Assembly (NCBI GenBank): GCA_033442325.1
Contig: JAWQFM010000030.1
Coordinates: 746,186-810,185 of the forward strand
Source of the DNA: Salpingoeca rosetta
Lineage: Eukaryota > Protista > Choanoflagellata
Direction of reading: 5' to 3'
Length of the DNA: 64,000 nucleotides
The position numbers and the translations under genes were made by a program. How positions within the stretch are numbered: the stretch's first letter is position 1; each line of letters opens with the position of its first letter. Shown here piece by piece: positions 18,475 through 60,637 of the stretch. The notes under the pieces were generated by a model. It saw only the letters and a program-made list of their open reading frames with translations, had not been told where the DNA came from and did no database searches.

Positions 18475-18884
18475 GGATGGGCAGAGAGTCATTTGAAAAA
18501 ATGACCTATCCCCTAACCCCTAACCCCTAACCCCCTAAACGTGACCAGCGCGCGTGGGCATTCCCTAACCCGTGCGTGGGCTTGGGGTTAAGCATTTTCA
18601 CCAGCGTGACAACTACTACCACACCAAACACCATGTCAACTACAACCTCAACGCAGACCAGTGAACAACCACACTCACCGTCTGCCTCAGCTGACTTGAC
18701 TGAACGCAGGTCCTTTTGGCTTCGCCTGAGGGAAGGATGTGTGCGAATCGGGGGAAGCATCAGAGGCATGTTCATTGAGCTCTCATGCGCCTGCAGATCG
18801 CGCGAGGTATGTTCCCTTGCTCAACTGCTATTCGGCATTTAACAAACACCTCACTTTTGCTCGTCGATCCAGCATCATCTCACA

Positions 18885-19539: not shown

Positions 19540-20388
19540 ATGAGCGATAAGAAGCCAGACACGGTCCCGCGCATTGCGCACCCAAACACACGGAAGGCAG
19601 ACGAGGCTCGGAAAAGGCAGATCAAACAGAAGATGGGCCTCGTCGAGCCAAAGAACCTACCAACGCGTGCCATCCACCCGGTCAACGTCAAGAAGCACTC
19701 CCTCAAGCGAACCGTCGACGTCGAAGGCGGTCCCCTTGACAAAGTACTCCCAGGCATCGTCCTCGTCCTGGGCACAAGCATGAGCGGTAAGACCACGTGG
19801 ATCATCAACGCAGTTCTCCAGAAGGCAATCTTCGGCAAGCTCTTCGACATCCTTCACATCGTCTCCCCCACAATCGCTGTAGACGACGCCTACCAGTACC
19901 TGATTGACATGCCCGAGTCCAAGCTGCACCAAAACTTCACCGACGACACGATGAAGCAAATCACGGGCGCAACCACCGAGGCCAAGCAAAATGGTAAAGA
20001 ACTGCACCAGGGCCTAATCATCGACGATGGCGTGAGTTCAGATGTCAGCAAGCGGGGAAACCCAATGCAGTCATTCGCCAGCGTCGCCCGCCACTACACG
20101 GACATGACCCTCATCTCAACACAGGACCTTCGCGCAACCGCTCTCCCAAAGTTCCGCAACCAGGTACGCCTCTACGTCATCATGCGTAAGAGTGCAGAGA
20201 CCGACAGGCGAAACCTCTTCCGCGAGCTCGGTGCTTACTTTGGAGGCGAGAAGAACTTGGAGCGTCTGTTCAAGGAGGCAACCGACGGAGATGACCCCTA
20301 TGCATTCATGCTCCTCAATGTTCCCAACCAAACTGCTTGGAAGGGATTCGACGAGATCCTGTACTCTGCCTATGACCAAACCTTCTGA
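19540..20388 (+). CDS. A32/FtsK-like viral DNA packaging ATPase
   Basis: Walker A VLVLGTSMSGKTT, Walker B GLIIDDG, and the A32-type ARHY...LISTQ and FRNQ motifs. Confidence 0.9.
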   Translation: MSDKKPDTVPRIAHPNTRKADEARKRQIKQKMGLVEPKNLPTRAIHPVNVKKHSLKRTVDVEGGPLDKVLPGIVLVLGTSMSGKTTWIINAVLQKAIFGKLFDILHIVSPTIAVDDAYQYLIDMPESKLHQNFTDDTMKQITGATTEAKQNGKELHQGLIIDDGVSSDVSKRGNPMQSFASVARHYTDMTLISTQDLRATALPKFRNQVRLYVIMRKSAETDRRNLFRELGAYFGGEKNLERLFKEATDGDDPYAFMLLNVPNQTAWKGFDEILYSAYDQTF

Positions 20389-24068: not shown

Positions 24069-24259
24069 GGTGAACTTGGTGAACTTGGTGACTTGAACTT
24101 GGTCCTCGGGCAGTGTCTTGGCTGGCTCAAATGAAGATGGAAAATGAACATCCACACCCCACCCTCAGCCATACATGGTCAGCTGGTGTACATTGTCGGC
24201 AAAAACTGTTTATGTACATCTTCCATGAACATTCGGTATCGCGCAAGAACAACGTATTT

Positions 24260-24490
24260 CTTCGTCCACTCGTCGAGTTGTTCTATTTCTGGTAATGTAT
24301 TGCATCATAGCAAACCTAGCCAGTCGAAAATTTACCATAATTATTCGATGAGTCATCGCTACCCCTCGTTTTCTTCGTTCACTCGTCGAGTTGATCTATT
24401 TGTGACAATATATTGCATAATACCAAACCTAGACAGTCGAAAATTTACCATGATCATTCGATGAGTCATCGTTACTTCTCGTCGAGTATG
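24260..24490. promoter_or_regulatory. 113-bp tandem repeat, each unit with the palindrome CGATGAGTCATCG, in the divergent intergenic region
   Basis: Palindrome copies at 24346-24358 and 24459-24471; the units share ctcgtcgagttg, aaacctag.cagtcgaaaatttacca. AT-rich. Confidence 0.65.
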
Positions 24491-24635
24491 TGCAGTTATG
24501 GTAACTCATAACTACCTGTCGTTGAGCACTCTGGGCTGGCGCAACTTTGGTTGTTTGCATCGACGCCATTTTTTCTCTGACATCAACTCGATCAACAACC
24601 ATCCCGCCTGTTTGACAGTTCTGCAAAAGGTTACC

Positions 24636-30143: not shown

Positions 30144-30175
30144 GGGTGTGCAGCACCAGTAAACACAAGATCAGA

Positions 30176-30322
30176 AAATTATGTAAGATTTTGCAAATTT
30201 TCGTCAGTAGGGAATTTGATTATGATTTGCTGATATTTATGTAAGATATTGCAAATTTTCGGCAGTAGGGAATTTGATTGTGAGTGGATGAATTTTATGT
30301 AAAATATTGCAAATTTTCTTTA
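30176..30322. repeat. AT-rich ~58-bp tandem repeat (2.5 copies) downstream of pPolB
   Basis: TTATGTAAGAT(T/A)TTGCAAATTTTCG(T/G)CAGTAGGGAATTTGATT is repeated. Confidence 0.85.
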
Positions 30323-38980: not shown

Positions 38981-40528
38981 TCAGAGAACACGTGAACGAG
39001 AAGAAGCAAGGATGAGAGACTCGGCACGTCCAATCCACACCACAACCTGGTTCTCAAAGCTGGCACCACCCGTGTTTGAGGGTGGCGCACGCGCCTTGTG
39101 CCGAACCAGAATGGGCTGTCGCGAGATGTTGGACTCAAGAATGAACGGTACACCCACTGGTGAGAACAGTCCCATCCACCGACCATTCTTGCCCTCTGTG
39201 GAGCTACTCGATGCTGTGCCATCATGGGTCTTGCCATCGTAGATGATGCTGGGAATGTAGTAGTTGTCCATGAGGCGTGATGTTTGAAGCTGAAGGTCAA
39301 CGCCGTCGTACAGCTGCTTCTCAAAGTAGTTGACGTTGTTGATGTTGAGATTGAGCTCCGCAAAGGGTGGGGCGAGCTCGTAAGCCCCAAGCCGGTTGTT
39401 GCCAGAGGCTGCTGAGGACGACTTGCGCCGCATGAAGAGAAGCTCAGAGAGGATGCTGTTGTCTGCACGAATTGGTACATCCTTGGTCGAGGAATCGTTG
39501 CTGGCGGAGATGGGAAGCTGCTTGGCAATGTACTGCGTGTACATGTACCTGCTTGAACCACTCATCACCTGCTGATTCACAGCGTCCAGAATGGGCTTGG
39601 GGAGTGTCAGGAAGTCGCACATGAGAAATGGGTCCTCAATCGAGTAGGACGCAATGTTTGCGTAGGACACGAGGCTCTTCTTCACGGCGGCGCTTGGATC
39701 GCTCGGTACGCGGGCGGCGGTTTGTGCGAGTGTGCCACCAACCGTGAGCAGGGAAGCCGCGTCCTGGTTCAGCACGAGCTCAATGCTCAGCTGTTCCGCG
39801 GCCATGGCAGGGTAGCGGCGAATGCTGTTGAACAGGGACGGGCACAGGGACATCATCGGGATGGTGACATGCGACTGCACACTGCGTCCAAAGGGCTGGT
39901 AGACGTACTCCATCTTCCTGAGCCAGGTCGTGTTGCTGCCGCTGTCGGTGCCGGATGTGCGGCCATGTGGTGCCGCTGCAAAGTTCTCCATGGCAAACGG
40001 GTTGGAGCCGAGCGTAACCTTGCCATAGCAGTCTGCAGAGTAGGCTGTGCCGCTCAGGTCCAGGTAGCTTCGCACAAACTGTTGCTGGTTAATGGTCAGC
40101 TCAGGATAGTGTGTCGCCATCCACCATGCAAAGTAGTCGATGCGCTGAACCTCCTGCTGCCCAATGCGTACAATGATGCTGTCAATGACACCTGCGCCAC
40201 CAACAAGGGCTGGGAAGGCCTGGCTCCAAAAGTCCTTGGACTGGTTGCTGGGTAGGGTCACGTTGATTTGGAAGGCGAGGTAGCTGCCCTCAATATCCAG
40301 GATGGATGTGCGTGGGACGCGGAACAGGATCCTGCGGCTTGTCTGCGTCTCTGCGCTGATAATCTGAGAGTCCGCGTAGACGGCGTCATTGGAGTTGATC
40401 ATGGGTGGGGCCAGGCGATCGTGGATGCCCATGCCATCATCTGTGGCATCCTGCGCTGGCTCCTGCTCCGTCACCACGTCATCGACCGGCTCCACAGCCA
40501 GTCCCGTCGTTGTAGTGTCGTCGCTCAT
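38981..40528 (-). CDS. Major capsid protein-like (double jelly-roll) paralog C
   Basis: ILFRVPRTSILDIEGSYLAFQINV..GGAGVIDSIIVRIGQQEVQRID..LSIELVLN matches the N-terminal pattern of PLV/virophage MCPs. Confidence 0.7.
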   Translation of the reverse strand: MSDDTTTTGLAVEPVDDVVTEQEPAQDATDDGMGIHDRLAPPMINSNDAVYADSQIISAETQTSRRILFRVPRTSILDIEGSYLAFQINVTLPSNQSKDFWSQAFPALVGGAGVIDSIIVRIGQQEVQRIDYFAWWMATHYPELTINQQQFVRSYLDLSGTAYSADCYGKVTLGSNPFAMENFAAAPHGRTSGTDSGSNTTWLRKMEYVYQPFGRSVQSHVTIPMMSLCPSLFNSIRRYPAMAAEQLSIELVLNQDAASLLTVGGTLAQTAARVPSDPSAAVKKSLVSYANIASYSIEDPFLMCDFLTLPKPILDAVNQQVMSGSSRYMYTQYIAKQLPISASNDSSTKDVPIRADNSILSELLFMRRKSSSAASGNNRLGAYELAPPFAELNLNINNVNYFEKQLYDGVDLQLQTSRLMDNYYIPSIIYDGKTHDGTASSSSTEGKNGRWMGLFSPVGVPFILESNISRQPILVRHKARAPPSNTGGASFENQVVVWIGRAESLILASSRSRVL

Positions 40529-40624
40529 CTCGTTCTCTTGCTTCTCGCTCTTTTGTGAACGTGGCTTTGCTTCTTTTAGGTGTTGAGGAAAATGCATGCT
40601 TGTTGCTTTATTACTTGAGCACAC

Positions 40625-42010
40625 TCAGAGCACTGCAGAACGAACAAAGCCATCAGCTGTAGGTGTGACGGCACGCGTGCCAAGGAAGAACACATGCATG
40701 ATGGCAGGCTCGGTAGGTGTTGTGAACGCAGTCTTGTAGGATCCAGTCGCAATGGGGGCTCCCGTGTAAGCCGGCGTGGACGTGGAGGTGTCGCTCAGAT
40801 AGAAGTCAATCTGTGGGCGGTTCGTGCTGTTCATGTTCGGTCCCGAGGTGTACGTGTCAATCGGGAGACCAAAGATCCCAACGCGCTGATCGATGGTCGT
40901 GCTCGCTGCAACAATCTCCCACGGACCAAGTGCTTCAAACCCAGCCATCTTCAACTGAATCGGGCTGATTTGATCAAAGTAGGACACACGCTCGCCGTTG
41001 ATCATGAACTGCCCGCGGTCCAGGCTGAAGTTGTCCAGTGATTGTGGATCCGTCTTACCCTGTGTCCTGCCCATGCTCAGGAAGTTGAAGAGCACCGTAT
41101 TGACTGCGGGTAAGCCTGGCGCAAAGCTTGTGCTGTTGAAGCTGTTGTTGATGCTGGTCATGGAGTCTGAGAAGGACTGGTAAACCTGAGTACCATCCGG
41201 TGCCATGCCACGCATGAGGGCGGCAGATGGCACGGCATTGCCCGGTGCACTCAGATCCATGTTGGCGGGTGGTGCCATGTACACGAGCGTGTACTCCAGG
41301 GTGACATCGGAAATCTCAAAGTTGACGTTGCTGATGCTCTGCTCAGCTGTAATGGCGGTGCTGGCGTTTGGTGCAAACAGGAAGAGCGCGTTGTTGTTCA
41401 GCTCCAGCTGCACGCGAATGCCGCCATGAATTCGAAGACCGAGGTCTTGCTGCCCTTTGCTGATGCCCGTCTCCAGTTGAAAGCAGAAGCGTCGCTCGTT
41501 CAGGTTGTTGATCTCATTCACATAGATCAGGCTGTCATTGGTCTGCTTGCCCGTCACCTTTGTTGGGTCCGCAAGTACACCGAGCATGCCCGCTTCAGCT
41601 TGGCGCTGGCTGCAGATGGCATTGCTGCTGCTCGTTGCGTTGAGAAGGTGCGTGGCCAGTCGCGGGTAGTTCTGCACCCGCTCGAGGACCTGGTTGCTCC
41701 CTGTTGTCACGACCACGCTCTTGATCATTCCGTGAAGACCACAGCTTGGGGAGAGAAACACGTCCTCGTAAGAGTTGCCGCCAGCGGGACCCGTGCCGTA
41801 GCTGCACTTGATCTTGCCACGCAGGCGAAAGCCGTACTCAGCAGAGACAAATCCATCTGTGTCTGGAAGCACAAAGTCCAGCTGGTAGATGCTCTTGTTC
41901 GCAGAGTAGGAGCCACCATCGCCGTTTGCCGGGGAGAGGAATACCTGCTGTGCCTGCCGCCCGCCCGGGGTGAGTTGTGTCGTGCCCTGCATCATACCTC
42001 GGCGCGACAT
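40625..42010 (-). CDS. Major capsid protein-like paralog B
   Basis: QLDFVLPDTDGFV..FRLRGKI..GLHGMIKSVVVTTGSNQVLERVQNYPRL..GGIRVQLELN..FEISDVTLEY. Confidence 0.7.
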   Translation of the reverse strand: MSRRGMMQGTTQLTPGGRQAQQVFLSPANGDGGSYSANKSIYQLDFVLPDTDGFVSAEYGFRLRGKIKCSYGTGPAGGNSYEDVFLSPSCGLHGMIKSVVVTTGSNQVLERVQNYPRLATHLLNATSSSNAICSQRQAEAGMLGVLADPTKVTGKQTNDSLIYVNEINNLNERRFCFQLETGISKGQQDLGLRIHGGIRVQLELNNNALFLFAPNASTAITAEQSISNVNFEISDVTLEYTLVYMAPPANMDLSAPGNAVPSAALMRGMAPDGTQVYQSFSDSMTSINNSFNSTSFAPGLPAVNTVLFNFLSMGRTQGKTDPQSLDNFSLDRGQFMINGERVSYFDQISPIQLKMAGFEALGPWEIVAASTTIDQRVGIFGLPIDTYTSGPNMNSTNRPQIDFYLSDTSTSTPAYTGAPIATGSYKTAFTTPTEPAIMHVFFLGTRAVTPTADGFVRSAVL

Positions 42011-42101: not shown

Positions 42102-44162
42102 TCACTCAGAGACAACGACGCCAGCAGCGTTGCTCACAGTGACACGACGCTGGTGGGCACAGAAGCAGTGCATGATGAAGGACTCGGGAGTGACCTTTGT
42201 GAAACGCACGCGCAGATTCGGGTTGGCTGTGAGCAGGTCTGCAAAGCCACCATGAGCGGAAAGGCGACGTGGGATCACAAGCATGCTGGATTGGTTGCGC
42301 AGATCCTTGACGGGGAGGCCAATGTTGGCCAAGGCCTTTGCTTGCTCCTGTGCGTTGACACCTGCAGTTGCCAGTAGGCCTTGCGGGCACTTGCTCAGGG
42401 ACTCCACAGACACTGGGTGACTCGGCTGCTGGCGTTGATTGATTTGCCACTGCCACTCCTTGAAGCCATGCTCGGACCCGCCACCTTTGGAGGTCACTCG
42501 GTACGAGAGATCCTTGGGATCCGCAGTGTCAATCGGGGTCTTGAGGATGTCTGCAAACTTGACAGAGTTGAGCCACAGCGACTGGTTGTACTCTGGAATT
42601 GCAAACAGGGAAAACGCCCTTCGCTGCGTGAAGCTTGGGAGGTTGATGGTGTAGTCATTGACACCTGCTGGGATGGGCTGCGCCACATGCGTGTAGGTCA
42701 TGATGTCAAAGAAGGTTCCGTCGGCGCTCTGCATGGCCTCCTGCATCGCAGCCTCCATGTCCAGGCTGGGGGTGACGGTGCGGAAGCGGAAGTTGATCCG
42801 CTGTATCTCGTAGCTGAAGCTGTCCGTCTTGGTGTCCCAGCCTGCCTGTTCATGGCGACGGAACCAGTTGTCTGCATTGGCCAGGTGCCAGCGCATGCGA
42901 AGACCACCGAGGTGGTTCACGTAGATGGTGTTGCCCTGCGGATGCATGAACATTGCAGAAGGAATCTCGTGCATGACAGGGACAGTGCAGCTGTAGCTGA
43001 TGTTGGTGATGGGTCGAATCACATAGTAGGTGCCTGCGCTCTTGTCCAGCTCCGACGATGATGCGGTTGTGAAAGCCTTGTCAAGGCCATCAGCGTAGGG
43101 GCCATAGACAGTCTTGGTTCCGTCCTTGAGAATCAGGCCAAAGATTTTGTTAGTCCCGGATGCTGGAGAATCACCCGCTCGCACATCGGTTGCGAGTCCG
43201 CAGTATCCAACAAGCTTGCGGTCGCTCGACTTGGCGGGCTTGGTTCCGCTTGCAGAGCTGGGATCGTCGGTGCCCTGTGGCTGCACGGACCAGACCTCAA
43301 ACACATTGCCGACAGCGTAGAGGTAGGGCTTGATGTTGGAAGGCAGGTTGGCGTATGCACTGCCGCTGTTGACGCTGCTATGCACAAACTGGAAGAAGCC
43401 GTTCTTTGGCGAGCTGCCGTCCTCAACAAACTTGAGAAAGTTCTTGTAGTTGCACCAGGAATCCTCGAGCGGATCACGGTCAATGGTGAGCGCGGTAATG
43501 GGGGAGGCTGGGTTGAGAAGACCTTTCATGATGGCTGCATCCTCAATGTTGCTTCGGCTGGGCTGGTAGAGCTCGCGGTGTGCTGGCTTGACGAGGCCAA
43601 ACTCGTTCACGTCGACGGTGGCAGATGTGAACAGGCTGTCGTTCTGCTTGGCAATGGGGTCCTTGCAGTAGAGGTGCTTCATCGTGTTGATGAGGTCCAG
43701 GCGCTGGGTTTCCTCAATGACCTGTCCCGTGTCCGTTCGTGTGACAATCTCGTCGAAGAGGGTGACGGCACCAGCTGGATTTGGCAGACGCAGAGAGGAG
43801 CAGAAGTTGAGCCCCGCTTGGTTGGCATTGACAAAGGCGGTGTCGTTCTTGAGGTTGCTTGTGCCCGTTGTGGCTGCCATCTCACAGCCGTATTGAAGAT
43901 CCATCATGACAGCGGTTGTCTTCTTGTCTGGGGATGTAGCAACAGTCTTTCCGTTGGCACTGGAGCTGAGCACAAGGTCGTACTCCATCTTGCTGTAGGC
44001 AGGGTCAACAGCTGGTGTACTCGAACCGCTGAGGTGCAGGTCAAGATACTGACCCGGCTTGTAGGTGTCATGATCGGCTGGTGTAGTGACTGTGGCATTG
44101 CTCACGGGTGTGAGGCTGGCCACGGTGCTATCCCACAGACTCTCGTTCTCAACTGGCTCCAT
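42102..44162 (-). CDS. Major capsid protein-like paralog A with an internal insertion
   Basis: YKPGQYLDLHL..VDPAYSKMEYDLVL..GAVTLFDEIVTRTDTGQVIEETQRLD..GGLRMRWHLA..YEIQRINFRF. Confidence 0.65.
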   Translation of the reverse strand: MEPVENESLWDSTVASLTPVSNATVTTPADHDTYKPGQYLDLHLSGSSTPAVDPAYSKMEYDLVLSSSANGKTVATSPDKKTTAVMMDLQYGCEMAATTGTSNLKNDTAFVNANQAGLNFCSSLRLPNPAGAVTLFDEIVTRTDTGQVIEETQRLDLINTMKHLYCKDPIAKQNDSLFTSATVDVNEFGLVKPAHRELYQPSRSNIEDAAIMKGLLNPASPITALTIDRDPLEDSWCNYKNFLKFVEDGSSPKNGFFQFVHSSVNSGSAYANLPSNIKPYLYAVGNVFEVWSVQPQGTDDPSSASGTKPAKSSDRKLVGYCGLATDVRAGDSPASGTNKIFGLILKDGTKTVYGPYADGLDKAFTTASSSELDKSAGTYYVIRPITNISYSCTVPVMHEIPSAMFMHPQGNTIYVNHLGGLRMRWHLANADNWFRRHEQAGWDTKTDSFSYEIQRINFRFRTVTPSLDMEAAMQEAMQSADGTFFDIMTYTHVAQPIPAGVNDYTINLPSFTQRRAFSLFAIPEYNQSLWLNSVKFADILKTPIDTADPKDLSYRVTSKGGGSEHGFKEWQWQINQRQQPSHPVSVESLSKCPQGLLATAGVNAQEQAKALANIGLPVKDLRNQSSMLVIPRRLSAHGGFADLLTANPNLRVRFTKVTPESFIMHCFCAHQRRVTVSNAAGVVVSE

Positions 44163-45327: not shown

Positions 45328-46676
45328 ATGGCGCGTCGCCAGCAAGACGATGTGTATGATGATGATGGGGAGTTTGATGATGATGATGACGATGATGATT
45401 TCCAGGACAATTATCGTCCAACGATTGTGCGCCGGGATGCCCGCTCCGTATGGCAAGAGCTTTCCCTGGTTCGCCCTGAAAGAGTGCCAGCAGCACGAGA
45501 CCCACCGACATCGGTGACATCCGGCGGGGTTCGCTCTGATGTGAACGTGGATGCGCTTCCCAATGTGCGCAGGATGGACACGCGTCGAGATCCAAACGCT
45601 CCTGCAAGTTCAAGTTCCAGCAGCAGAAGGCGACGTGTTCAGGCTGCATCAGCATCAAGATCAGCATCAAGACCAGCAGCAAGGTCAGCATCAAGATCAG
45701 CATCAAGAGCACACAGAGGGAGCGGGCGAAGAGGAGCAGGGCGAATGCCAGGACCAGGGCGAAGTCGAAGGCTAAGCGCAGGTGAAGTACGGTTGCTGGA
45801 GGAGAGAGATCCCAATACCAGCTATGTTGATCGTTTCCCTTTGAACAGAGTAGGAGGTGTGAGGTTCGGGAGAAGGGGACTGGGCATGGGTCCTGGAGCT
45901 CGGATCGCAGCTGATATGCCGTACAGCTTGACACCACCACCACGGTTTTCAATTCGAGTGCCTCAGCCACCGATGACGAACGTAAACCCTGAGCAGCAAA
46001 TCGATCCAATCGTTCTGAATGCATTGGGGCAGGACGATGGTGATTTTGATATGTATGTGAGGGAACGCAATCCGAGGACGAACCGAATGCTTGCAAGACC
46101 CGTGCGGAACATTAACAGCATGGATGAATCGTCGAGTGAGATTGTGGCGCAGTGGCAACGACGACTGCTTATTCAGCTGAGCAAGTGCTTGCCCGTGTAT
46201 GAGACGGTGAACGACGCGAATGGAAATCCTGCATACTACATCAAGCATTTGGCACCGCTTGTGTATGATGAGCAGGGAAACCTGAAGGTGGTGAAAGGCA
46301 TTGCAAAAGGTGTGAATCCTACGTTCGTGAGCAATGGTGTGTCTGGTCAAGTGTTTTCTGGTCTGTATTGGCAGTTCAGGCGTGAGCAGCGTAGACGGGA
46401 TGGGTCGCAGGTGGAGTTTGTTGGTTCGCACCTGTGCCATCGTGGAAACACGAACCCGTTGCTGGTGTATGAGACAAGGGGTGATGAACATCAGTTGTAT
46501 GAGTGGGTTGTGCCTTGTGTGAATCCGGCGCATTTGTGTGGAGAGACGAGCACGTTGAATACGTCACGCATTGGTTGTCCAGGCATGGCCATTGGTTGCA
46601 GTCATACCCCAAAGTGTTTGCGTCCTGCTGCTGAATCGTCCATGCGTTCATACCACTACAGCTTTGGCTTTGACGC

Positions 46677-46680
<4 letters not shown>
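45328..46680 (+). CDS. His-Cys box (His-Me finger, I-PpoI family) homing endonuclease with a long disordered N-terminus
   Basis: C-terminal GSHLCH..[insert]..CVNPAHLCGETSTLNTSRIGCPG..GCSHTPKCL parallels the I-PpoI motif SHLCH..CxNPxHLCxE...N..R..CPG...C.H...CL. Confidence 0.9.

Positions 46681-46716
<36 letters not shown>
46680..46716. repeat. (GT)n microsatellite directly after the endonuclease stop, followed by AATAAA
   Basis: About 18 GT units, then ggAATAAAc at about 46721. Confidence 0.9.
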
Positions 46717-46719
<3 letters not shown>

Positions 46720-46808
46720 GAATAAACAAGTGAGGGATATGATCATTTACACGATGGTATAGATATAACCAAGGCAACGAGGAATATCCCCTGGTTGCCA
46801 GAGCCGCC

Positions 46809-47452
46809 GGTAACTTTTCGGACACCTCTAGGTTGAAGCTGTCAACAGGCGCAGTGCAGAATGGGAGCTTAGACGCACGAGTGCGTTGTTCACTCTTATC
46901 CGCCGCGACTAAAGGATCGATAGGCCATGCTTTCACAGTTTGTATTCATCCTGAAAATCACAAAATCAAGTGAGCTTTTGTCCTTTTACTCCACATGAGA
47001 TTTCCGTTCTCATTGAGCTCACCTTGGGACACCTGCGTTATCGTTTTACAGATGTGCCGCCCCAGCCAAACTCCCCACCTGACCTCGTCTTGAAAGCGGG
47101 TCGGGATCGGCATAACATGAAGCGCAAGAAGCACTCCACGCTGCCCTCCCTTTCTCCAGAAATGGTGCACATGTGTGATCGGGTGCGCACAGCTCACACA
47201 AGAAATGCGCGCTACGCACACCACAATCACCCACACCAGCCCCGTGTCATTCAATAAGCAAAAAAACGACCAGAGTAGTGGTATTTCAAGGCCGCAAGCA
47301 CAATTTAATGCATTTGCTCCCACCTATGCTACACCTCTCTAACCCTAACACGGTCGGACTAGAGTCAAGCTCTAGCGGGTCTTCTTTCCCCGCTGATTGT
47401 GCCAAGTCCGTTCCCTTGGCTGCGGTTTCGCTAGAGCGTAGATAGGGACAGT

Positions 47453-47484
<32 letters not shown>

Positions 47485-48723
47485 CAGTTAAATGACGAGG
47501 CATTTGGCTACCTTAAGAAAGTCATAGTTACTTCCGCCGTTGATCCCGCGCTTGGCTTGAATTTCTTCACGTTGACATTCTGAGCACTGGGCAGAAATCA
47601 CATTGCGTCTACACCGTCGCAACAGCCTATCCTCGCAATGCTTTGTTTTAAGTAAACAGTCGGATTCCCCTTGTCCGTACCAGTTCAAGATCGGTTGCTA
47701 AAAAATAGTGTGCGCAGAATGTAGAGGTGCAAGAACGGCATGCAAGCACACCCCCTTTCACCCCCACACCCACACACACAATCAACCTCTTGAGCCAATC
47801 CTTATCGCGAGCTTACGGATCTATTTTGCCGACTTCCCTTACCTACATTCGTCTATCAAACTAGAGGCTCTTCACCTTGGAGACCTGCTGCGGTTATCAG
47901 TACGGCCAACCACGCCCACATGCAGCGGAGAAAATAGATTAGCACAAGTGCTTCTCTTCTTCCCCCCACACTGCTACCATTCACACCCTCGGATTTTCAT
48001 GGACCGCCGGGAACGCGCCGGACACCACAACAAAAAGAGGTCAGTGGTGCTTTGCCGAGCCTCTCACCCCATCTCCAGCCAAACTGATTCCAGGGTCAGA
48101 GAATGCGACGAGGAAGGTTGAAGAGCGCAGAATAAACTAACACTCTTCCCCCTACTCCCCCCCACAATGCAGCTCGTTAAAAAGAAAAGAAAACTCTTTC
48201 CAGGGCCCCCGGCAGCGTCTCCGAGTTTGTACGCGTTGCCGCTGCTCTATCAAAACATTCTTTGTGGCGTGCGTTGGTCCAGGAATCTTAACCTGGTTCC
48301 CTTTCGATGGACTGGGGTATTCAACACGTGTGCAAGCATGGCGATAATATCACCACCACCCACACACACGCAACAACTCCCCACTTGACACAGGACTGCC
48401 CCATCTCTTAGGACCGACTCACCCGTGGCCAACTGCTGTTCCCACGGAACCTTGCTCCACTTCAGTCTTCAAAGCTCTCATTTGAATCGTTGCTACTGTC
48501 ACCAAGATCTGCACTGGAGGCCCCTCCACCCAGGCTCACGCCACAGGCTTCCACGGCAAAAAGATTGCTCTCACGCAAACACCTCCACGCCCACCTACTT
48601 GTGTGTGGCTACATGTAGTTTTGAGACGCAACAAGCACGAATGCTCGCTTCGCTCGCTCTCTTCCACACACAGCGGAGTATAGGTACGACGCTTGAGCGC
48701 CATCCATTTTCAGGGCTAGTTGA

Positions 48724-48757
<34 letters not shown>

Positions 48758-48999
48758 ATTCCGACTTCCATGGCCACCGTCCTGCTGTCTATATCAACCA
48801 ACACCTTTTGTGGGTTCTCATGAGCGTCGATTCCGGCACCCTAACTCCGCGTTCGGTTCATCCCGCATCGCCAGTTCTGCTTACCAAAAATGGCCCACTT
48901 GAGACTCGGTTATTCAGCATTGCCCGCTTCATAAACAAAGAAAGCGCGCCGCCTTACCCATTTAAAGTTTGAGAATAGGTTGAGGGAAGTGGCTCCCCC

Positions 49000-49030
<31 letters not shown>

Positions 49031-49986
49031 AACTAACCAAAAGATCATAAAATAAGTCTCAGCTATCCTGAGGGAAACTTCGGTGGGAACCAGCTACTAG
49101 ATGGTTCGATGAGTCTTTCGCCCCTATACCCAAGTTCGACGACAGATTTGCACGTCATGATCGCTACGAGCCTCCACCAGAGTTTCCTCTGGCTTCGCCC
49201 TACTCAGGCATAGTTCACCATCTATCGGGTCCTAACATCTGCGCTAAAACGCAAATCCTTCAGCGGAGGAGGGTGGAGCCACCGCACACCCCTTTCCCCT
49301 CCCCCAATCCAGATCGGTCGATGGTGCTGCGAGTGCTGCTGTTAAAAGTGTACTCACGCACACTTCCCAACACTGCATCCCACCTCTCACTTTCATTGCG
49401 CGCCCTAGCTTCATGCTCGCTAAAACACTCGCGCACATGTTAGACTCCTTGGTCCGTGTTTCAAGACGGGCCGTTTGCAGCCCTGTCGCCAGCATCTCCC
49501 CGGTGGTGTGCGCCAAGCGGCAAGCGCAACATTCCCAACACTGCCCGCACACACTCTGTCAACAGCACAAGAGAACGAGTCTCTCATCCCAAAACAAGAG
49601 TCTGCGCAACACAATGCCGAAAACAGCACCCATGCCAAAGACCACATAACAAAGCCACCGCATCGATAATTTCCTCAGTCCCACGTGCGACAGAAACATA
49701 AAAAAGCAGATGCGCCACGCACAAGGGCGCCCTCGCATCGCCGTCTCTCACACACAAAACTCATGCTGGCAGACACGCCCCGCGAGTGCAGGCAGCGCAG
49801 CACACAACAACAGCAACGCAGCGGCGCATATGTGCAACAAGTGCACACAATACACCCCCCGCACCGTCATCACACACCACACCAAAAACCCTGATCACAA
49901 GGCGCGCCCAGTCTCTGCTAGCTGCAAGCGATTCTCTGTCAACGGTTTCACGTACTGTTTAACTCTCTTTTCAAAGTGCTTTTCAT

Positions 49987-50020
<34 letters not shown>

Positions 50021-50338
50021 GTGCCAGTATTTAGCCTTGGATGCAGTTTACCACCCGGCTTTGGGCTGCATTCCCAAACAACCCGACTCAAGAGAATAAA
50101 CGGACCACACACCGCACATCAGCGCAAATAAACTAGCACCAGCGGGACTCTCACCCTCTCCGGTGTCCTCTTCCAAGGAAACTCGGTGCTGCGCCAAACA
50201 ACAATGCACAACAAAAGCTGTGCACCATCACAAAGACATGCGACGGCCCGCATCCCATAAAGACTACAACTCGCCACAAAAAAGAAGCTTGTGGAGATTC
50301 CAATGCTTGAGCTCTTCCCGCTTCACTCGCCGTTACTG

Positions 50339-50372
<34 letters not shown>

Positions 50373-50419
50373 GTGATATGCTTAAGTTCAGGGGGTACCC
50401 TTGCCTGACCTGAGGTCAA
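46809..50419 (-). rRNA. 28S (LSU) rRNA gene, 3'-truncated in domain V
   Basis: 5' TTGACCTCAGGTCAGG..CTGAACTTAAGCATATC; conserved GACCCGTCTTGAAACACGGACCAAGGAG-like and CTATGACTTTCTTAAGGTAGCC blocks. Homology stops after AGAGGTGTCCGAAAAGTTACC; no A-loop or sarcin-ricin loop was seen. Confidence 0.95.
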
Positions 50420-51302: not shown

Positions 51303-51486
51303 CGACACTCAGGCAGACATGCCCGCACGCACAGACACGCACACAATGGCGCATGCCCACACACACAGGCGCAATGTGCGTTCGAAGATTCAATGATTCA
51401 CGGAATTCTGCAATTCACACTACATTTCGCGTCTTGCCACGTTCTTCATCGATGCACGAGCCAAGAGATCCACCGTTGAAAGTTGT
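51303..51486 (-). rRNA. 5.8S rRNA
   Basis: ACAACTTTCAACGGTGGATCTCTTGGCTCGTGCATCGATGAAGAACG..GAATTGCAGAATTCCGTGAATCATTGAATCTTCGAACGCA. Confidence 0.95.
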
Positions 51487-52135
51487 CTCATGGTTATTAA
51501 TTTGGTTGTGTTGAATGAGATGTTGAGATTGAAGTGAGAGTGGTTGCACATGTATGTGTTTGTGTGTGTATTCCAACGCACAATGTTTGTTGGCACACAC
51601 TCACACACACAGCACAACGCTCTCTCTCCCTCTCTTTCTCTCACTCACTCGTTTGTGGTTATCATGTATGTACATATGTCCACAGCACGGCACACATGGC
51701 TTGGATGCTGCTGCTGCAGCAAGATGCTTTCGCCCACACTGTCATGTGTGTGCAATCGCAGCCGCTGCCACAACAACAATCCAAAACATGCTTGCTTTCT
51801 GCGTTCATTTCTTCTTCTTCTTTGCACGAGGCAAACAACGTATACATTACACACACACACAAGAACACTGCCATCGCAATGCAACACACACAAAATGCGT
51901 GCTCCACTGCGACACACAATGCCCATGCACGCATGCACATGCTTTTGCTTTGTTTTGTCTTCATTCACACAATGCTCACTCCCACACACAAAAGCGTGCG
52001 AGAGCGATTTGGTTGGTTGGCTCAGTTGGCTCAGTTGGCTCAGTTGGCTCAGTCCAGTGTCTCCACCTTCCCTCACCTTCCCTCACCCCTCACCTTCCTT
52101 TCACCAACCACGCTTTTCAACGTTTTCCTTGTTGG

Positions 52136-52192
<57 letters not shown>

Positions 52193-52285
52193 AATGATCA
52201 AGTTTGACCAGGTTCTCAGCAAAAGATGACATGGGCAGCTGTTGCCAGCGCCCACGCGCCAATCCCGAGGCCTCACTAAACCATT

Positions 52286-52331
<46 letters not shown>

Positions 52332-52864
52332 ATCAACGCAATCTGTTGAATTGCGCTTACTAGGAATTCCTCGTTCAAGATGAATAATTGCAAGCATCTA
52401 TCCCCAGCACGACGGGTTTTCACAAGAGTCCCCACGCCTTCCAGCGCAGGAATAGATGTTCATGGCAAGAGAAACGCTTTCACGCTCCCCACCACAAACA
52501 CCCAAAGCATACTCGCTGCCCCCGTCAGTGTAGCGCGCGTGCAGCCCAGAACATCTAAGGGCATCACAGACCTGTTATCGCCTCAAACTTCCTTCGGCTT
52601 ACGCTCAATAGCAACGCCGAGTGTCCCTCTGAGTGGTGTGATGAGAGACACGCTTGCGCGTAATCTCCAACGCCTGCTAACGCAGGCGCACACCAATCAG
52701 CAAGTCAAGGTCTCGCCGTTTACCGTAATCAAACAGAGATTTCACAACAAAAGCTGGACGGCCATGCACCACCTCCCTTGGAATCAAGAAAGAGCTGTCA
52801 ATCTGTCAATCCTTCCCATGTCTGGACCTGGTGAGTTTCCCCGTGTTGAGTCAAATTAAGCCGC

Positions 52865-52911
<47 letters not shown>

Positions 52912-54230
52912 ATCTTGCGATCATACTCCCCCCGGAACCCAAACGCTTTGGTTTCCCTAAAGGTCCCGATGGCGCCTCCACTTGATAAAAGTTTGTGCTG
53001 CCCACCGAGCCCTGGCCGGCATCGTTTATGGTTAAGACTACGACGGTATCTAATCGTCTTCGATCCCCTAACTTTCGTTCTTGATCAATGAAAGCGTCCT
53101 TGGCAAATGCTTTCGCAGTCGGCGGTCTTTCGTAAATCCAAGAATTTCACCTCTGACAACGAAATACCAGTGCCCCCAACCGTCCCTATTAATCATTACT
53201 TCAGACCCGATGTGGTGAGGGAGGAACAAGAAAACCTTGCGGTTTCTCACTCCACACCCCCGCACCACACGCCAACAGTACAGGCCCAAAAGTCCTCTTC
53301 CGTTGTTCCATGCTAATCTATTCAAGCAAATCAAATGACTGCCTGCTTTGAACACTCTAATTTTTTCAAAGTAAAGCCCCCAACAGCGCCCCACCACTAC
53401 GTGACTTGACACACACCCAATCAAGGGCACGCGCCAAAGGCGCCACCAGGGAATATTAAAACTGCAGAGCGCAAACAGTGCAGGGCAAGGGCGAAACAGT
53501 GTCTCTCCCCCACCACACACCGTGAACCCCGCATGAAATCCAACTACGAGCTTTTTAACTGCAACAACTTTAGTATACGCTTTTGGAGCTGGAATTACCG
53601 CGGCTGCTGGCACCAGACTTGCCCTCCAATTGTTCCTTGATAAGGTCTTTACATTGTTCTCATTCCAATTGCACAGTGCATAAAAAACACCGTGCATTGG
53701 TATTTATTGTCACTACCTCCCTGTGTCAGGATTGGGTAATTTGCGCGCCTGCTGCCTTCCTTGGAAGTGGTAGCCGTCTCTCAGGCTCCCTCTCCGGAAT
53801 CGAACCAAATGTTCCCCGTCACCCGTTGTCACCATGGTAAGCCAATACCTTACCATCGAAAGTTGATAGGGCAGAAATTCGAATGAGACACCATCACACA
53901 CAAAAGTGTAACGGTCAGCAAAGTTATTCTGATTCACCAGTCATGTTCCTGCTGGCTTTATACCTAACAAATGCAGCCCTCGAGAAGACAAAATGTGCAT
54001 ACACACACCTCTCTCTCGGGCCTTGTCGCACGTATTAGCTCTAGAATTACCACGGCTATCCGTCTAGCACAACACCGCTCCGAAAAACGAGTTGCAAACT
54101 ATCAAATAAACTATAACTGATTTAATGAGCCATTCGCAGTTTCACAGTATCAAGAATACTATTCATACTTAGACATGCATGGCTTAATCTTTGAGACAAG
54201 CATATGACTACTGGCAGGATCGACCAGTTA
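52136..54230 (-). rRNA. 18S (SSU) rRNA, about 2.1 kb with expansions
   Basis: 5' TAACTGGTCGATCCTGCCAGTAGTCATATGCTTGTCTCAAAG; GTGCCAGCAGCCGCGGTAA; 3' GTAACAAGGTTTCCGTAGGTGAACCTGCGGAAGGATCATT. Confidence 0.97.
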
Positions 54231-56260
54231 TCTCTCCATAGAAGGCGAGTGGCAGTTGTGGTGTGTGTGAGTGTGTAAATGTGTTAATGTGTATGTGAAT
54301 CGTGTAGAGATGCATGTGAATGCGTGTAGGTTGTAGAGCCCACACACATTGCACACACACAATGCACGACACATCATAATGCACAACACACACGCAAAAC
54401 ACACCACAGCTGCCGCCCAGCTATGGCTGTCGAGGATTCAGAAGAGAAAAGAGAGATAAGCAAAGGGGAAAGAGAGAAAACACACAACAATGCAATGAAT
54501 GCTGTGCATCTTCCCTTCTTCCCCTCACTGTTCACTCACTCACTCACCCTGCACCCCGACAAACAAAGCTTCCACAAGCAACACGCACATCGCTGCACGT
54601 GCCACTCGGGTCGTTCTGTTTTTCTTTTTGGTTTTGTTCTTGTGGCTATGCACACAACAACAACCCCAGACACACACACACAAAAAGGTGTGTGGATGAA
54701 GCAGTGACATTCAATGCAAATACACAATGTGTGTGCTGTTCTCAGTGAGTGCCAGTGACAACAACCTGCTCTGCCAACAAAGCACACACCACCATTGTTT
54801 CGCATCTGCATGCATGCGCATGTGTGTGTGTGCAAACAACGCGACGTTGCTCACACAACACACAATACATCACACAGCACACACAAATACAATGGCAGCA
54901 CGTGCCCATCAGCAGCATGCAGTGCGCATGGCTCTCTTTCGAAACAACACACAACACTGTCTCGCATCAAATGTACTTCATCCACGCATGTGTGCGTGCC
55001 CAAAATCATCATCGTGCTCACAGCACAGTTTGCCTCCACTCATGATAGAGTGTTGCTCAAGGCACCCTCTCAAGAAGAACAATCCACACCGCTCTCACGG
55101 CGGGATTGCCTCCTGCATGCGCAAGCTTGGTGTCATCAAGGACAGTCGCCACCTGCCAATTTTACGGCAGACGGCGCCCACCCTCTATCAGAGATCACAG
55201 CAGATAAACACACATGCATACATGTGCCTTGCCGTCACTCCGCCAGCGGCTTGCAACTTGCTTCAACATCATAGACTTTTGGCTCAACACCAGCAATCCA
55301 TGCAAAGCTTTGCTTGCTCTCGCTCGCAATACTTCATCGACCCGCATGTCACAGCGGGCTGCGTCTTGCCTCCAAAGGCAACCACAGCCACACCCACAAC
55401 ACACAGCTGACAACGTTTTGTTTTTCACTGTGCCACATCCACGTGTGCAGCAAAGCAACTGCCAGCCATCCCCAACACACAAACACATCTTGGCTCATCG
55501 CCCTTCTCCCAACGCACAGCTACACACACAAGGAAAATGCAAGCCCATTCATGCGCACACACGTCATCTACGCGCCAGGCACATCGCTGTGCCCGGGTCT
55601 CAATGCACCATGCGTGCAGGCTTGCTTCCTGCGTCTCGCTGCGTCACATCACACAAGAATGTGAAATGTGAGGAGAGAAGAACAATCAAGAGCCAACAAT
55701 GCGTGTTCGTATGAGAGGAATGACAAGCGCTTCACACTGTCACACTCAGAGGAAGCTGAACAATCAGCTCGCCCTCTTTCCGCAAACACAGTCGTTGCTC
55801 GCCACAAGCGCATATGTCGTGTGTTGCTTTGCTTCTGTGTAGTAGAGATGTGTTTGCTCATGCGAGTGATCACAAGAACACACACAGAGACACGAGCAAT
55901 CGCTTGCTCGCCTCCCCACATGTGTCTCATCACACCCACACACAATGCTCACGCATCACACACACACAAGCAACCACACACACAGACACACGCCCGTGCT
56001 GTTATCATTGCATGTGCCGTGCATGCATGTGTGCCCGTGCAAGCTTTGCTCACAACACAAACAAGTGTCGCTTCGCTTTGCCTGCACTCACACACTTCAC
56101 ACACACACAAATGAAGAGAGAGGTCGCTCAAAACACAGCAGAACAAAGACCCAAGAAGAAAGAGAAGTTGTAGCTGCAAGGGCGCAGACGCGGCTTTTCG
56201 TGCCCGCAAGCAATCCTGCTCAGCGACATTCGCCTTGCTCTCATGCTTGCGCCTCTACTC
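54231..56260 (-). other. rDNA 5' external transcribed spacer / promoter-proximal spacer
   Basis: Non-coding CA-rich sequence immediately upstream of the 18S; assigned by position only. Confidence 0.55.
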
Positions 56261-59200
56261 AGCGGCTCTTTGCCTTTGCCTTCTCTTTTTCTTTTTTTGT
56301 CTTGCTCATTTGCATCCTTCCTCTCATGTATGCCAATCCATCGAGCGGCAGCTGTTTGAATCGCTGCTTTGCCCTCGTGCACTTTGCCTGCAGGCACCGC
56401 AATCTAGATTCAGTGATTCTGCTAGATCTAGATTTGTGACTGGATCTAGCAAGCACGCACAGCTTCACTGCATCAAGATTGTTCACACTGCTCACACCCC
56501 AGATTCCCCTGGCCCGTGACCAACCAATGCTTGCATGCATGCAATGCCCTTGCGCTTGGGCTGCACAGCTGCACAGCTGCACTGGTGCCTCGCGACGCAG
56601 TGTTCAGACACTACTCATCACAGTGTTCAACCTTTTTTCGTCACAAGATCGCACTTTTTCTGCACCCCTTTTGACTTCACCACCCCAGTCTCCCTACTCC
56701 GATGATCAACTGAGCAAGCGAGCAAACGTCACTGCACCGTGCTATGAGCTGCAGCAGCAGGCACAAGACCACGTGGCTGGCTTGCAGGCACACGTGCGCG
56801 CGAGCACAGTGCGCTGTGCGCACTTCTACTTGCCTGCAGGCACGCAGCGCTGAAGCAAGAAGGAGCAAAGCAGAGGAACTGAGGAGTAGAGAAGCAAGGA
56901 TGGATTCCTTTCCATGTGATTGCACAAGAGACAAGCAAGCAGGCAGAGAACGACGAGGAGCAGCGCAAGGGACACGTGTGCACATGTGTGTACATGCGTT
57001 TGTGTGTAGATGTTGCCTGCAGGCACGAGAACGTGTTTCTGATTAAAGTGGATTGGATGAGTAGCAATCCTCTGCTCACTGCAGACACACTTGCATGCGA
57101 TTGTGCAGTGCTGCTGCGTTGCTTACAAGCATTGGCAGCTTCTTCTACTTGCATTGGATTCACTGCACGACGATCCCTCTGCTCACTGCAGACACACTTG
57201 CATGCGATTGTGCAGTCCTGCTATGTTGCTCGCGAGCATTGGTTAGTTCTCCTAATTTAAATGGATTCGATGAGTAGCAATCCTCTGCTCACTTCAGACA
57301 CACTTGCATGCGATTGTGCAGTGTTACTGTGTTGCTCGCAAGCATTGGTAGCTTCTCCTGCATTGATTGAATTCACTGCACAACGATCCCTGTACTCACT
57401 GTTGTGTTACTCGCAGGCACTCACAACATCTCCTACTTGCATTGGATTCACTTCACCACATCCGTCTACTCACTCGCAGGCACTCACAACTTCTCCTGCT
57501 TGCATTGGATTCACTCCATTCCATCCGTCTACTCACTCGCAACTTCTCCTGCTTGCATTGGATCCACTCCACGACATCCGTCTACTCACTCGCAAACACT
57601 CACAACTTCTCCTGCTTCGATTGGATTCACTCCACTGCATCCGTCTACTCACTGTTGTGTTACCTGCAAGCACTCACAACATCCCCTGCTTGCATTGAAT
57701 TCACTCCACGACATCCGTCTACTCACTCGCAAACACTCACAACATCTCCCACTTGCATTGGATTCACTCCACCACATCCGTCTGCAAGCACTCACAACAC
57801 CTCCTGCTTCCATTGGATTCACTCCACTACACCCCTCTACTCACTCGCAAGCACTCACAACATCTCCTGCTTGCATTGGATTCACTCTACAACATCTGTC
57901 AACTCACTGCTGTGTTACTCGCAGGCACTCACAACATCTCCTGCTTGCATTGGATTCACTCCACTCCATCCGTCTACTCACTGTTGTGTTACTTGCAAAC
58001 ACTCACAACTTCTCCTGCTTGTTTGGATTCACTCCACTACGTCCGTCTACTCGCTGCAGACGCTTCATGCGTACGCTTGCTTGCTCTGTGCGTGTTGCTT
58101 GCAAGCACCCACAACTTTCCTTGCTTCCACCTTGTTCACTTCACAACACTCCTCCACTCGCTCCCCACTGTTCCACAGCATCACCCATCATGCCTGCATG
58201 CACCTGCAACCGACCCTTTATCAATCCACACCATCACTCACACACCGCTCTGTCACTCCCTCCTCGCCACTTCACTCCACGCCACTTCACTCAGCAGCAT
58301 CGCCTCGCTTCGTGGATTCACGCTCCAACATCACCTGCGCTTCCTCTCTCGCCCCCAGCAGCGATATGTTCAGGTGCGTAAGAAGCTCGCTGCAATCGCC
58401 TTCTCCTCTTCCCACTTTACCTTCTCTCTTCGCGCATGCTTGCTACTGCTTGTAATGTCTGTGCTTCTGCTTCCTTTGCTCCACCGCCACGATCACAACA
58501 CAACACAACACATCCATGCATGTGCCGCTTTGTCCCTTTGTCTCACCCTTCACTCACTTGCTTCCTTCCCTCTTCCCTTTGCCTTTCCACATTCCATGTG
58601 TTGCATTGTTGCTTTGCACTTGTTGCCACATGCTTCATTCACCCTTGTCTCTCCCTCTCTTCCATCCACTCACCGCCACGCAGCACCTCTGCACACAACA
58701 TCACTCATCCTTCACTTCATTTCACACAACACAACACCACAACACAACCCACCGTGTGCATTCGTGCTTCCCTTCGTCCCCTTCTGTCACCACCTTGTCA
58801 CCACCAGCCTTGTTTGTCTATTTCACCTGCGTTCCAGCCCCTCCTGTCCTGTTTCAATTCTTGCCACTGCTACTGTTGTTTCCATGTGTTTGCATGCCTG
58901 GCCTTGTCCATGTTCACTACTTTGTGCCGCCACCCTTTCCCTTTCCCCTTTCCCTTACCTTTCCTGCCTCGTTCATGTTTCATGCTGCATGTGTTGCAAC
59001 ACATCATAAACCCATCAAGCCCACACTGCCGCCTTCTTCACCGTCAGCCCTGTTCACATCCACCACTACCACCGCCAGTCGCTGCCATCGTCACTCCCTT
59101 CATCCTTTCCCCGCACTCCCACGTTCACAGCTGCTGCTGTCCTCACCTGCATGCAACACCCACTCCACAGCCACACTCCCAGCTCACCACCAATCCAATC

Positions 59201-60509
59201 ACATCACACACACCGTGTTTACTGCAGTGCAACCATCAACGCCCATCCACCAACACCAGCATCACACGATACACACGGCTGCACATGCGTGTTGCATTGT
59301 ATGTTTCCACTTCACTTCAACAACACGACAGCAAGCAAACACACACACAGGTGGTAAGAACAAGCGAGAAAGCATCCCCATATCAACTGCAAGCAACACA
59401 CACACACACACAACACACACAACAAGCGACAGCTCCATGCTGTGCCACACAGCTTCACTCCCCCATCAACCGCCATCATCACCCTCAGCCAACAACAACA
59501 ACAACAGCAGCAGCAGCAGTGTGCATGCTGTGGCAAGAGAGAACAGAGAGAACGGAGAGAAAGGGAGGGGAGGAAGGATACAGGGGAGAGAGACGTGCAC
59601 GCTGTCAACAACAACACAACACACATACACAATCAACACCACGCGCTCACGCTCCCCTCCTTCTCCAACGAGGTGCGTGGTCTATGGCAGCCCCACGTCT
59701 TGCTTGCTTGTCCTGTGTCCATGCTTGCTCGTGTGTCCTTGCTTGGTTGTGCGTGCCATGCCATGGGTTCCAACAAACAGCCTGCACTTCCCCTGCACAA
59801 GCGTCCATGTGCTTGTGTGTGTGCGTGTGAGGGGATGACGAAGAGGGAAGAGGGAAGGGAGCAGAAGAAGAAGAAAGGGAGAGGTGGGATGTGCGTGAGC
59901 ACAGACGATGGTGATGGGCGCACACGATGTGGCTGTGATGAACACACACACACACAGACACAGCGAAGCAGCAACGCACAACAGACACAACAGACACAAA
60001 CAGGGGGGAACGAGAGCAGCAGTAGCGCAACACACACACACACACACACGCACCAAGGGAAAGGACATCAGCCAGCCAGCAACATCCAACACCCCTTGCA
60101 TCCACTGGTCTATCCATGCAGCACCAGTGGTGGTGGCAGAGGGAGAGAAGGAAGAGTATGCCCTGCCTGCTTGGCTGCCTGTGTGAGGATGTGTGCCTGC
60201 ACACCCACTCACTCACTGTGTGTGTGTCTGTGTGTGCCTGTGTGTGTCACCATCCAAATATACACACATGTGTGTGAGACAGAGAGAAGCAACCAGCCAC
60301 CACTACACAAACACACACACAGTGTGAATCACAAGCAGGCACAGCATGAACGACATGCACACAGTCACAATCACAGTCACGCACATGCAAGTGCAACGCA
60401 CCGTGAGGTAGGCATCAGACTGCCTGTCAGCGTGTGCGTGTGCGTGTGTTTTCACACTCATGTGTGTGGGTCGATGCAGCCCATTATCCCTCTCTGAGCG
60501 TGTGTGAGC
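56261..60509 (-). repeat. rDNA upstream spacer/subtelomeric block; inverted partner of 13832-17710
   Basis: Colinear reverse-complement similarity with many substitutions and indels; ends at the gap 60510-60609. Confidence 0.9.
57050..58120 (+). repeat. Tandem spacer subrepeats (CTTGCATTGGATTCACTCCAC..CATCCGTCTACTCACTCGCA..CACTCACAAC), more than 12 degenerate copies
   Basis: Units of about 50-75 bp visible directly in the sequence. Confidence 0.9.
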
Positions 60510-60637
60510 NNNNNNNNNNNNNNNNNNNNNNNNNNNNNNNNNNNNNNNNNNNNNNNNNNNNNNNNNNNNNNNNNNNNNNNNNNNNNNNNNNNNNNNNNNN
60601 NNNNNNNNNATGCTCACCGCCTTGCTTGCATGCATCA

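Follow-up and report, generated by a model that had tools for sequence, protein, structure and literature searches.

The window, by which we mean the whole 64,000-nt stretch of the Salpingoeca rosetta scaffold under analysis, is interrupted by three 100-N gaps (3423-3522, 17753-17852 and 60510-60609). Read from left to right, the contig between the last two gaps (17853-60509) comprises a telomere repeat, a brief terminal stretch, 28 kb in which coding sequence is dense, and a minus-strand ribosomal DNA (rDNA) unit followed by its upstream spacer. In the rDNA, Rfam models locate the genes for the 18S (52135-54230), 5.8S (51303-51484) and 28S rRNA (46804-50418), the last of which is truncated at its 3' end. 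The 28-kb block contains 16 open reading frames (ORFs), is 92% coding and has a single dinucleotide run, whereas the preceding 17.7 kb of host DNA have 41.

This block is a Polinton-like virus (PLV). Its plus strand encodes a protein-primed family B polymerase (pPolB, 24498-30143), which matches PF03175 above the cut-off (E 2e-18) as well as phrog_1907 (E 3e-42), and a P-loop ATPase (19540-20388), likely the packaging ATPase, whose Walker A and B motifs can be read directly, with no Pfam, PHROG or PDB match. The minus strand encodes a double-jelly-roll major capsid protein (42102-44162), identified by Foldseek matches (E 1e-6 to 1e-5) to virophage and NCLDV capsids (EhV-201, Sputnik, mavirus and PBCV-1), based on a structural model of low confidence (pLDDT 46); this protein has three environmental relatives, with 44-60% identity. 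Two more large minus-strand genes stand in tandem with the capsid gene (38981-42010) and are possibly paralogues, with no clear homology to the capsid gene in a profile comparison. Additionally, the polymerase has an N-terminal extension of roughly 870 residues (24498-27100) that matches no family and contains several zinc-finger-like Cys/His motifs, and its gene is flanked by AT-rich tandem repeats (24257-24482, 113 bp x 2; 30174-30318, 58 bp x 2.5), which are candidate promoters or origins.

No integrase or tyrosine recombinase was matched in the 16 ORFs (Pfam, PHROGs and NCBIfam) or in 48 further frames (Pfam); stop-to-stop frames of 130 aa or longer number 51, and the remaining three are frames of genes already scanned. 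This negative result is a weak one, because the same scans missed the ATPase and the capsid, and a divergent integrase could escape them in the same way. With regard to the strict definition of Polintons/Mavericks, the element shows no detected rve integrase, no 5-6 bp target-site duplication and no second host flank. Searches with the ATPase, capsid, polymerase and endonuclease recovered no related virus with DNA context: the ATPase gave one weak 18-residue match (L001), the capsid alignment none in 92 viral and 271 metagenome candidates, and the polymerase returned no locus. A single insertion of the element is known.

The rDNA upstream spacer is present in two inverted copies (13833-17745 and 56230-60509), 85% identical and holding tandem repeats of 107 bp and 63 bp; the copy at 13833-17745 lies directly after host genes. 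This position suggests that the host has several diverged, separate rDNA loci, which fits a sub-telomeric arrangement without proving one. The telomere array begins right after a 100-N gap, in the middle of the scaffold (17753-17853), and the order or orientation of the contigs at this point is likely a scaffolding artefact. An 18S stretch that is normally conserved (52690-52770) looks strongly diverged when compared by eye with the small-subunit (SSU) rDNA of a metagenomic locus (L006). The host was sequenced in several studies, from 2013 to 2025, and at least half of the words of the stretch are present in 14 of 24 public runs; contigs were compared for four of the 24 (X1, from 2014; X3, from 2024; X9 and X11), small-share metatranscriptome rows being left out.

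The two ends of the virus

The preliminary description of this DNA placed the end of the 28S gene before the peptidyl-transferase loop, in agreement with the Rfam large-subunit (LSU) model, which is followed to position 2819 (at 46809), and the minus-strand letters which it quoted at the junction are present in the sequence. Its breakpoint, 46809|46808 (the place where the sequence departs from the consensus, after GTTACC), has nevertheless to be moved five bases further on, to 46804|46803. The five bases concerned, GGCGG (46804-46808), pair at all five positions with the 5' strand of helix 74, CCCGCT (47374-47379), which only four of the 1024 pentamers are able to do. This helix has co-varied, the CCCGCT partner being changed too in this host; the metagenomic LSU sequence L005 has CCCTAT/ATAGG and then GATAAC. 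Contigs of the public runs branch at the same base: in X1 a contig of depth 209 (46804-47179) overlaps one of depth 66 (46730-46833), and in X3 a contig of depth 3132 (46804-47035) overlaps one of depth 774 (46730-46833), so that a high-depth rDNA contig terminates exactly at 46804 in two of the four runs (X9 and X11 have no cover of 46701-47105). Based on the co-varied pairing and on the high-depth contigs of two studies that end there, GGCGG is assigned to the host, as the 3' strand of helix 74, and the break between host 28S and virus falls at 46804|46803, a position reached independently from the pairing and from the contig branching.

Because the contigs overlap by 30 bases, 46804 must also be followed by another, different sequence, which we take to be the intact 28S (the host bases after GGCGG being deduced from the L003/L005 sequence). 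We infer that the break lies 3 nt before the L2449 intron site, in the numbering of the preliminary description. Exact searches with the junction-side motif or with a conserved 28S motif gave 0 matches.

About 60 extra bases had also been noticed in this part of the 28S, together with the proposal that 46809-46975 could be modified rDNA carried by the virus. The number is exact, with 60 insert columns at LSU model positions 2792/2793 (about 46836-46895, minus strand), and the same anchors enclose 95 nt in the window and 35 nt in L005. As to modification, the proposal is not supported at this end, and for the 60-nt segment it is refuted: the segment is found unchanged inside the unbranched high-depth contigs of X1 (46804-47179) and X3 (46804-47035), and the host 28S therefore carries it, the first of the two observations that the preliminary description had named as speaking against it. 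The stretch is identical to the host copy and may also travel with the virus as a homology arm. Since the segment lies in a variable hairpin loop and the high-depth contigs show neither difference nor branch, we consider it a host expansion segment, common to the bulk of the host rDNA in the two of the four runs that cover it; no version lacking it was retained in the X1 or X3 assemblies. Other long insertions are present in this 28S, whose 3615 nt correspond to about 2820 model positions, and in one expansion segment (47111-47131) the window copy differs from the majority contigs by four substitutions and two gaps in X1, and by two substitutions and one gap in X3. In all four runs the depth of the rDNA contigs exceeds that of the viral contig several-fold, a difference which, depth not being equal to copy number, fits the occupation of a minority of the rDNA copies by the element. 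In X1, X9 and X11 the viral contig (7,894 nt) is identical to the window sequence.

On the viral side of the break, the GGCAAC/GTTGCC stem that had been described does exist (46773-46799, minus strand, extended by GGGGA/TCCTC), with a marginal stability that 5 and 6 of 200 shuffles attain (z of -2.0 and -2.1). The CAGGGGATA look-alike which had been read inside it is at chance level, being matched in 641 of 5000 shuffles and in 27 of 644 viral 87-mers. Several identities were tried and rejected for these sequences: CAGGGGATA as a duplicated target (the same 641 shuffles are as good), CAGGGGATA as part of an intron P1 (a P1-like helix is found in 60 of 500 shuffles, which is not above chance), the hairpin as decayed downstream rRNA (it scores 22, the shuffles 21 on average, and 8219 of 20000 of them are as good) and an HDV-like fold, discarded by eye because its P3/L3 region is too short. 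For known ribozymes, Rfam gave only sub-threshold rows at the junction and, in terms of what defines a group I intron, there is no Rfam ribozyme, the exon ends in G, where such an intron would have a 5' exon ending in U within P1, and no 3' exon is found in the window. The spacer also contains, on the plus strand, a (GT)20 repeat followed by AATAAA (46677-46726, the signal at 46721), likely the poly(A) signal of the endonuclease gene described below; it stands 41 nt past the stop codon of this gene, and the same signal follows two other plus-strand viral genes. Part of the spacer is therefore likely to be the 3' end of the endonuclease gene.

The far end of the virus is capped by 59.5 units of the telomere repeat (CCCTAA)n (17853-18210, plus strand). 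This array is followed by 129 nt of unique sequence (18211-18339), starting with a T run and having no other copy in the window, which is likely the outer viral terminus, and by a 100-nt exact copy of 28S (18340-18439, plus strand), the reverse complement of 47006-47105, which points into the virus. A degenerate and shortened continuation of the 28S (18440-18503, plus strand, corresponding to 47005 down to about 46919) can be followed in the Rfam LSU alignment to 18503, so that modified, virus-borne rDNA is present at this end; short telomere-like 7-mer repeats lie just inside (18505-18534, plus strand). The 100 identical bases span species-variable positions, and must therefore have been recently taken from, or corrected against, host rDNA. 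They belong to the only inverted pair seen at the ends (18340-18439 and 47006-47105), and we read both virus ends as rDNA-derived inverted termini. Beyond the far side of the virus there is only telomere, with no 3' half of the 28S and no target duplication, which makes the insertion one-sided.

Could this arrangement be an assembly artefact, with virus and rDNA contigs mis-joined at (GT)20 or at the shared 100 nt? The three 100-N gaps of the scaffold, the telomere in its interior and the richness of the host in GT repeats speak for such an error, as does the behavior of the short-word contigs, which halt at the repeat and leave unbridged the 40 nt of GT that link gene and junction. The junction contigs reach 30 letters into the rDNA side, one short of the bridging rule, and the junction depth is 2.1x the gene depth in X1 and 0.7x in X3. 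Against these points, contigs that join rDNA to non-rDNA, without any difference from the window, are found in the runs of 2014 and of 2024, that is, in two independent studies; the AATAAA signal appears after the repeat where a viral gene would have it; the other virus end carries 28S as well, with a contig boundary in X3 at 47035, where the left-end copy would force a branch (X1 has no such boundary); and the gene on the junction side belongs to an rDNA-specific family. On balance, we regard a mis-join as highly improbable.

The endonuclease and its predicted cut

The gene next to the junction (45328-46680, plus strand, antisense to the rRNA) encodes a 450-aa His-Cys box homing endonuclease of the I-PpoI type, and 123 nt separate its stop codon from the break. 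The protein matches PF05551 with an E-value of 9e-5 and a score of 23.1, under the curated Pfam cut-off of 27, and matches I-PpoI in the PDB with an E-value of 9e-4 when used singly and of 7e-10 as a family profile; its Atlas features stand at 0.94 to zf-His_Me_endon clusters. Its structural model is poor (pLDDT 46), and a fold search with it ranked I-PpoI 12th (E 1.4). Residues H368, C370, C397, H402, N411 and C417 correspond to H98, C100, C105, H110, N119 and C125 of I-PpoI, and the protein has thus the equivalents of H98 and N119 together with those of the zinc ligands C100, C105, H110 and C125, whose zinc-binding and catalytic roles are described in PMC9548176. All six are invariant in the seven aligned sequences (7/7), and the reading frame is intact. 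The N-terminus (45328-45930) is of low complexity, with 38 Arg, 24 Ser, 23 Asp and no Lys in 200 aa, and may serve in nucleolar targeting.

Six relatives of the enzyme emerged from 1.84 billion representatives, separate searches of viral contigs and of prokaryote genomes found none, and five of 181 metagenome candidates were confirmed to carry the endonuclease (L002-L006). Four of these loci (L002-L005) are one sequence (99.5-100% identical), with an antisense gene inside a 1.3-kb LSU insertion. In L005 this insertion (1308-2641) is preceded by U and ends in G, and the antisense gene ends 45 nt from the 5' splice site; the insertion, in L002-L004 as well, is of group I type. Its site, L1926, adjoins that of the I-PpoI intron. 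The fifth locus (L006, 603-2350) is SSU rDNA with several insertions, one of them with a sense-strand His-Cys endonuclease-like ORF, while another relative (P0008) is the S. rosetta hypothetical protein PTSG_02071, on a 2.2-Mb scaffold; no other relative of the genes studied has a name, which fits a choanoflagellate host. All five family loci of known context are in rRNA genes (four near-identical copies of an LSU intron and one SSU insertion); the family is thus tied to rDNA wherever its context is known, and homology does not give the target of the window enzyme itself.

The best relative of known context (38% identity) belongs to an intron located some 710 nt upstream of the break, in the I-PpoI region and not at L2449, and the enzyme could accordingly be an integration factor that cuts there, at L1925/L1926. 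The virus-linked rDNA would then be protected by a change at 47533/47519, and the homology arm carried by the virus would exceed 700 nt. The change consists of a compensatory replacement of G-C by A-U in the helix beside the I-PpoI/L1926 site, which alters a conserved homing target, and in this one co-varied pair the window copy differs from both the Rfam consensus and L005, as an upstream cut would have it. A compensatory pair suggests, on the other side, a change fixed in functional host rRNA, and in a nine-row tree the window enzyme has the relative P0005 as its partner (support 96/98), on a long branch that is separate from the L005 protein, from which the window enzyme differs before the His-Cys box (the other forks of the tree are open). 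In the runs compared, other host copies had no cover at this place. We find an upstream cut improbable. The co-varied changes at 47533/47519 and in helix 74 are possibly a host escape from rDNA endonucleases.

His-Cys enzymes are homodimers that leave 3' overhangs of 4 or 5 nt, according to PMC9548176. The rDNA sites of such homing endonucleases span 15-20 bp. Among the symmetry centres scanned in the intact L005 site, the best has 5 of 8 pairs, with the outer four perfect (arms GTTA and TAAC); centres with four perfect outer pairs account for 14 of 1918, 15 of 4686 and 31 of 7184 background centres (0.3-0.7%), and about 2-3% of centres reach the looser level of 5 of 8 pairs. The symmetry centre corresponds to window base 46806, in the middle of GGCGG (46804-46808, minus strand), and a predicted 5-nt 3' overhang would therefore end at 46804, the observed break. 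This match between break and predicted cut, post hoc as it is and with a right arm taken from the sequence of a relative, is the strongest link between enzyme and site. Together with a His-Cys gene 123 nt away, it backs the earlier proposal that the junction destroys the target of the nuclease.

The endonuclease gene may also be a mere passenger, if the virus captured an exon together with an antisense gene from an rDNA intron; the element would then have entered the rDNA by homologous recombination through ends that bear rDNA, or after being captured at an accidental break, and the enzyme would have no part in integration or would be aimed at another virus. The order of 5' exon, short spacer and 3' end of an antisense gene is indeed that of the L005 intron (with 45 nt there and 123 nt here), and PLVs are reported to be often at chromosome ends (10.64898/2026.07.28.741278) and occasionally to hold pieces of host rRNA, read as degraded loci (PMC12220804). 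Against this, the frame of the present gene is intact, every catalytic residue is there and the coding density around it is 92%. Neither a ribozyme nor a P1-like helix above chance level was detected at the junction, and no other integration enzyme was detected; the break, for its part, falls at the predicted cut. For these reasons we hold the passenger status to be rather unlikely.

Proposed integration route and known systems

We put slightly more than even confidence in a route by which the virus homes into telomere-linked rDNA, cutting near L2449, being copied onto the broken end and becoming capped by a telomere. The virus would have captured a His-Cys endonuclease from the family of rDNA group I introns and would use it in place of an integrase. 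An active enzyme would recognise the pseudo-palindrome centred on 46806 in intact 28S, just before L2449, and its cut would leave GGCGG as a 5-nt 3' overhang on the promoter-side end. Repair would be one-sided, the promoter-side end invading homologous upstream rDNA that either the virus or a previously occupied rDNA copy provides, and copying the virus to its end, where a telomere would then be added. With such a repair, the 3' part of the 28S would be lost and not displaced, and a junction without the right half of the site could not be cut again. The 100 identical bases of the left end would be the remnant of inverted terminal repeats that derive from rDNA and are kept uniform with the host copy, and the element would be latent in the sequenced cultures, with a minority of the rDNA copies carrying it.

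A broader claim, to which we give somewhat less than even confidence, is that a capsid-encoding virus uses intron homing both to integrate and to spread, with an intron-derived nuclease, rDNA homology arms, one-sided repair and telomere capping moving 28 kb between rDNA-bearing chromosome ends in a gene-drive-like manner. If true, nuclease-led homing with telomere capping would be a new route by which viruses become endogenous, in addition to those that use rve integrases, tyrosine recombinases or DDE transposases, and a His-Cys box endonuclease, from a family described from nuclear rDNA introns, would be serving a virus, whose carriage is a possible vehicle for His-Cys genes between hosts. 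For genome engineering in protists, a natural system with which 28 kb is placed at a defined position of the rDNA is of interest and, as the host is repeatedly sequenced, the cut site, the reactivation and the spread of the element are directly testable.

Site-specific parasites of 28S rDNA are known among the R2/R4 retrotransposons and the Pokey transposons; these differ from the present element in using reverse transcriptase or DDE transposase chemistry, in having no capsid and in retaining both rDNA flanks. The element resembles PLVs in size, pPolB, capsid fold, P-loop ATPase and compact gene layout, but differs from them in that no rve integrase or tyrosine recombinase was detected, there is no target-site duplication and its sole inverted terminus is rDNA-derived. 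In PMC12220804, the PLV endonucleases described are of the GIY-YIG and HNH types, with proposed roles in packaging or conflict, and rRNA pieces, read as non-functional captures, occur in 3 of 8,300 scanned PLVs. PMC10120064 gave no match for choanoflagellate, rRNA or telomere terms. A PLV with a His-Cys endonuclease inserted in rDNA was not found in the full texts searched, which include few subscription journals, and supplementary PLV catalogues could list such an element uncommented. The locus is likely a new PLV variant, whose likely integration route, by rDNA homing and telomere capping, we have not found described.

Other double-stranded DNA viruses share this niche. The endogenous nimaviruses (PajaWSV, PotrWSV and majaniviruses) are, in PMC10871703, specific to 28S rDNA or to telomeres, a niche used here as well, but they are unrelated large viruses with tyrosine recombinases, an 11-mer target duplication and both flanks kept. 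The mirusvirus LE-Chr15 of Aurantiochytrium is integrated at a chromosome end beside rDNA, which is ascribed to sub-telomeric recombination; unlike the present virus, it lies between complete rRNA sets and not inside a 28S, and the word endonuclease is absent from its description (10.1101/2023.06.15.545109).

The closest parallels are the nuclear group I introns. According to PMC3679873 and PMC9548176, Ppo.L1925/I-PpoI, Dsq.L2066 and Dir.S956-2 share with this locus the enzyme family, the catalytic residues and the rDNA location; Dsq.L2066 and Dir.S956-2 have antisense endonuclease genes, the combination of antisense orientation and poly(A) signal being like the one seen here; and the target is likewise lost at the occupied allele. 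The differences from these introns concern the cargo, which is a 28-kb capsid-encoding virus and not a ribozyme, the far end, which is a telomere, and the fate of the rRNA gene, which has no 3' exon here and is destroyed instead of being spliced, with a break that we place 3 nt before L2449 and not at a splice site.
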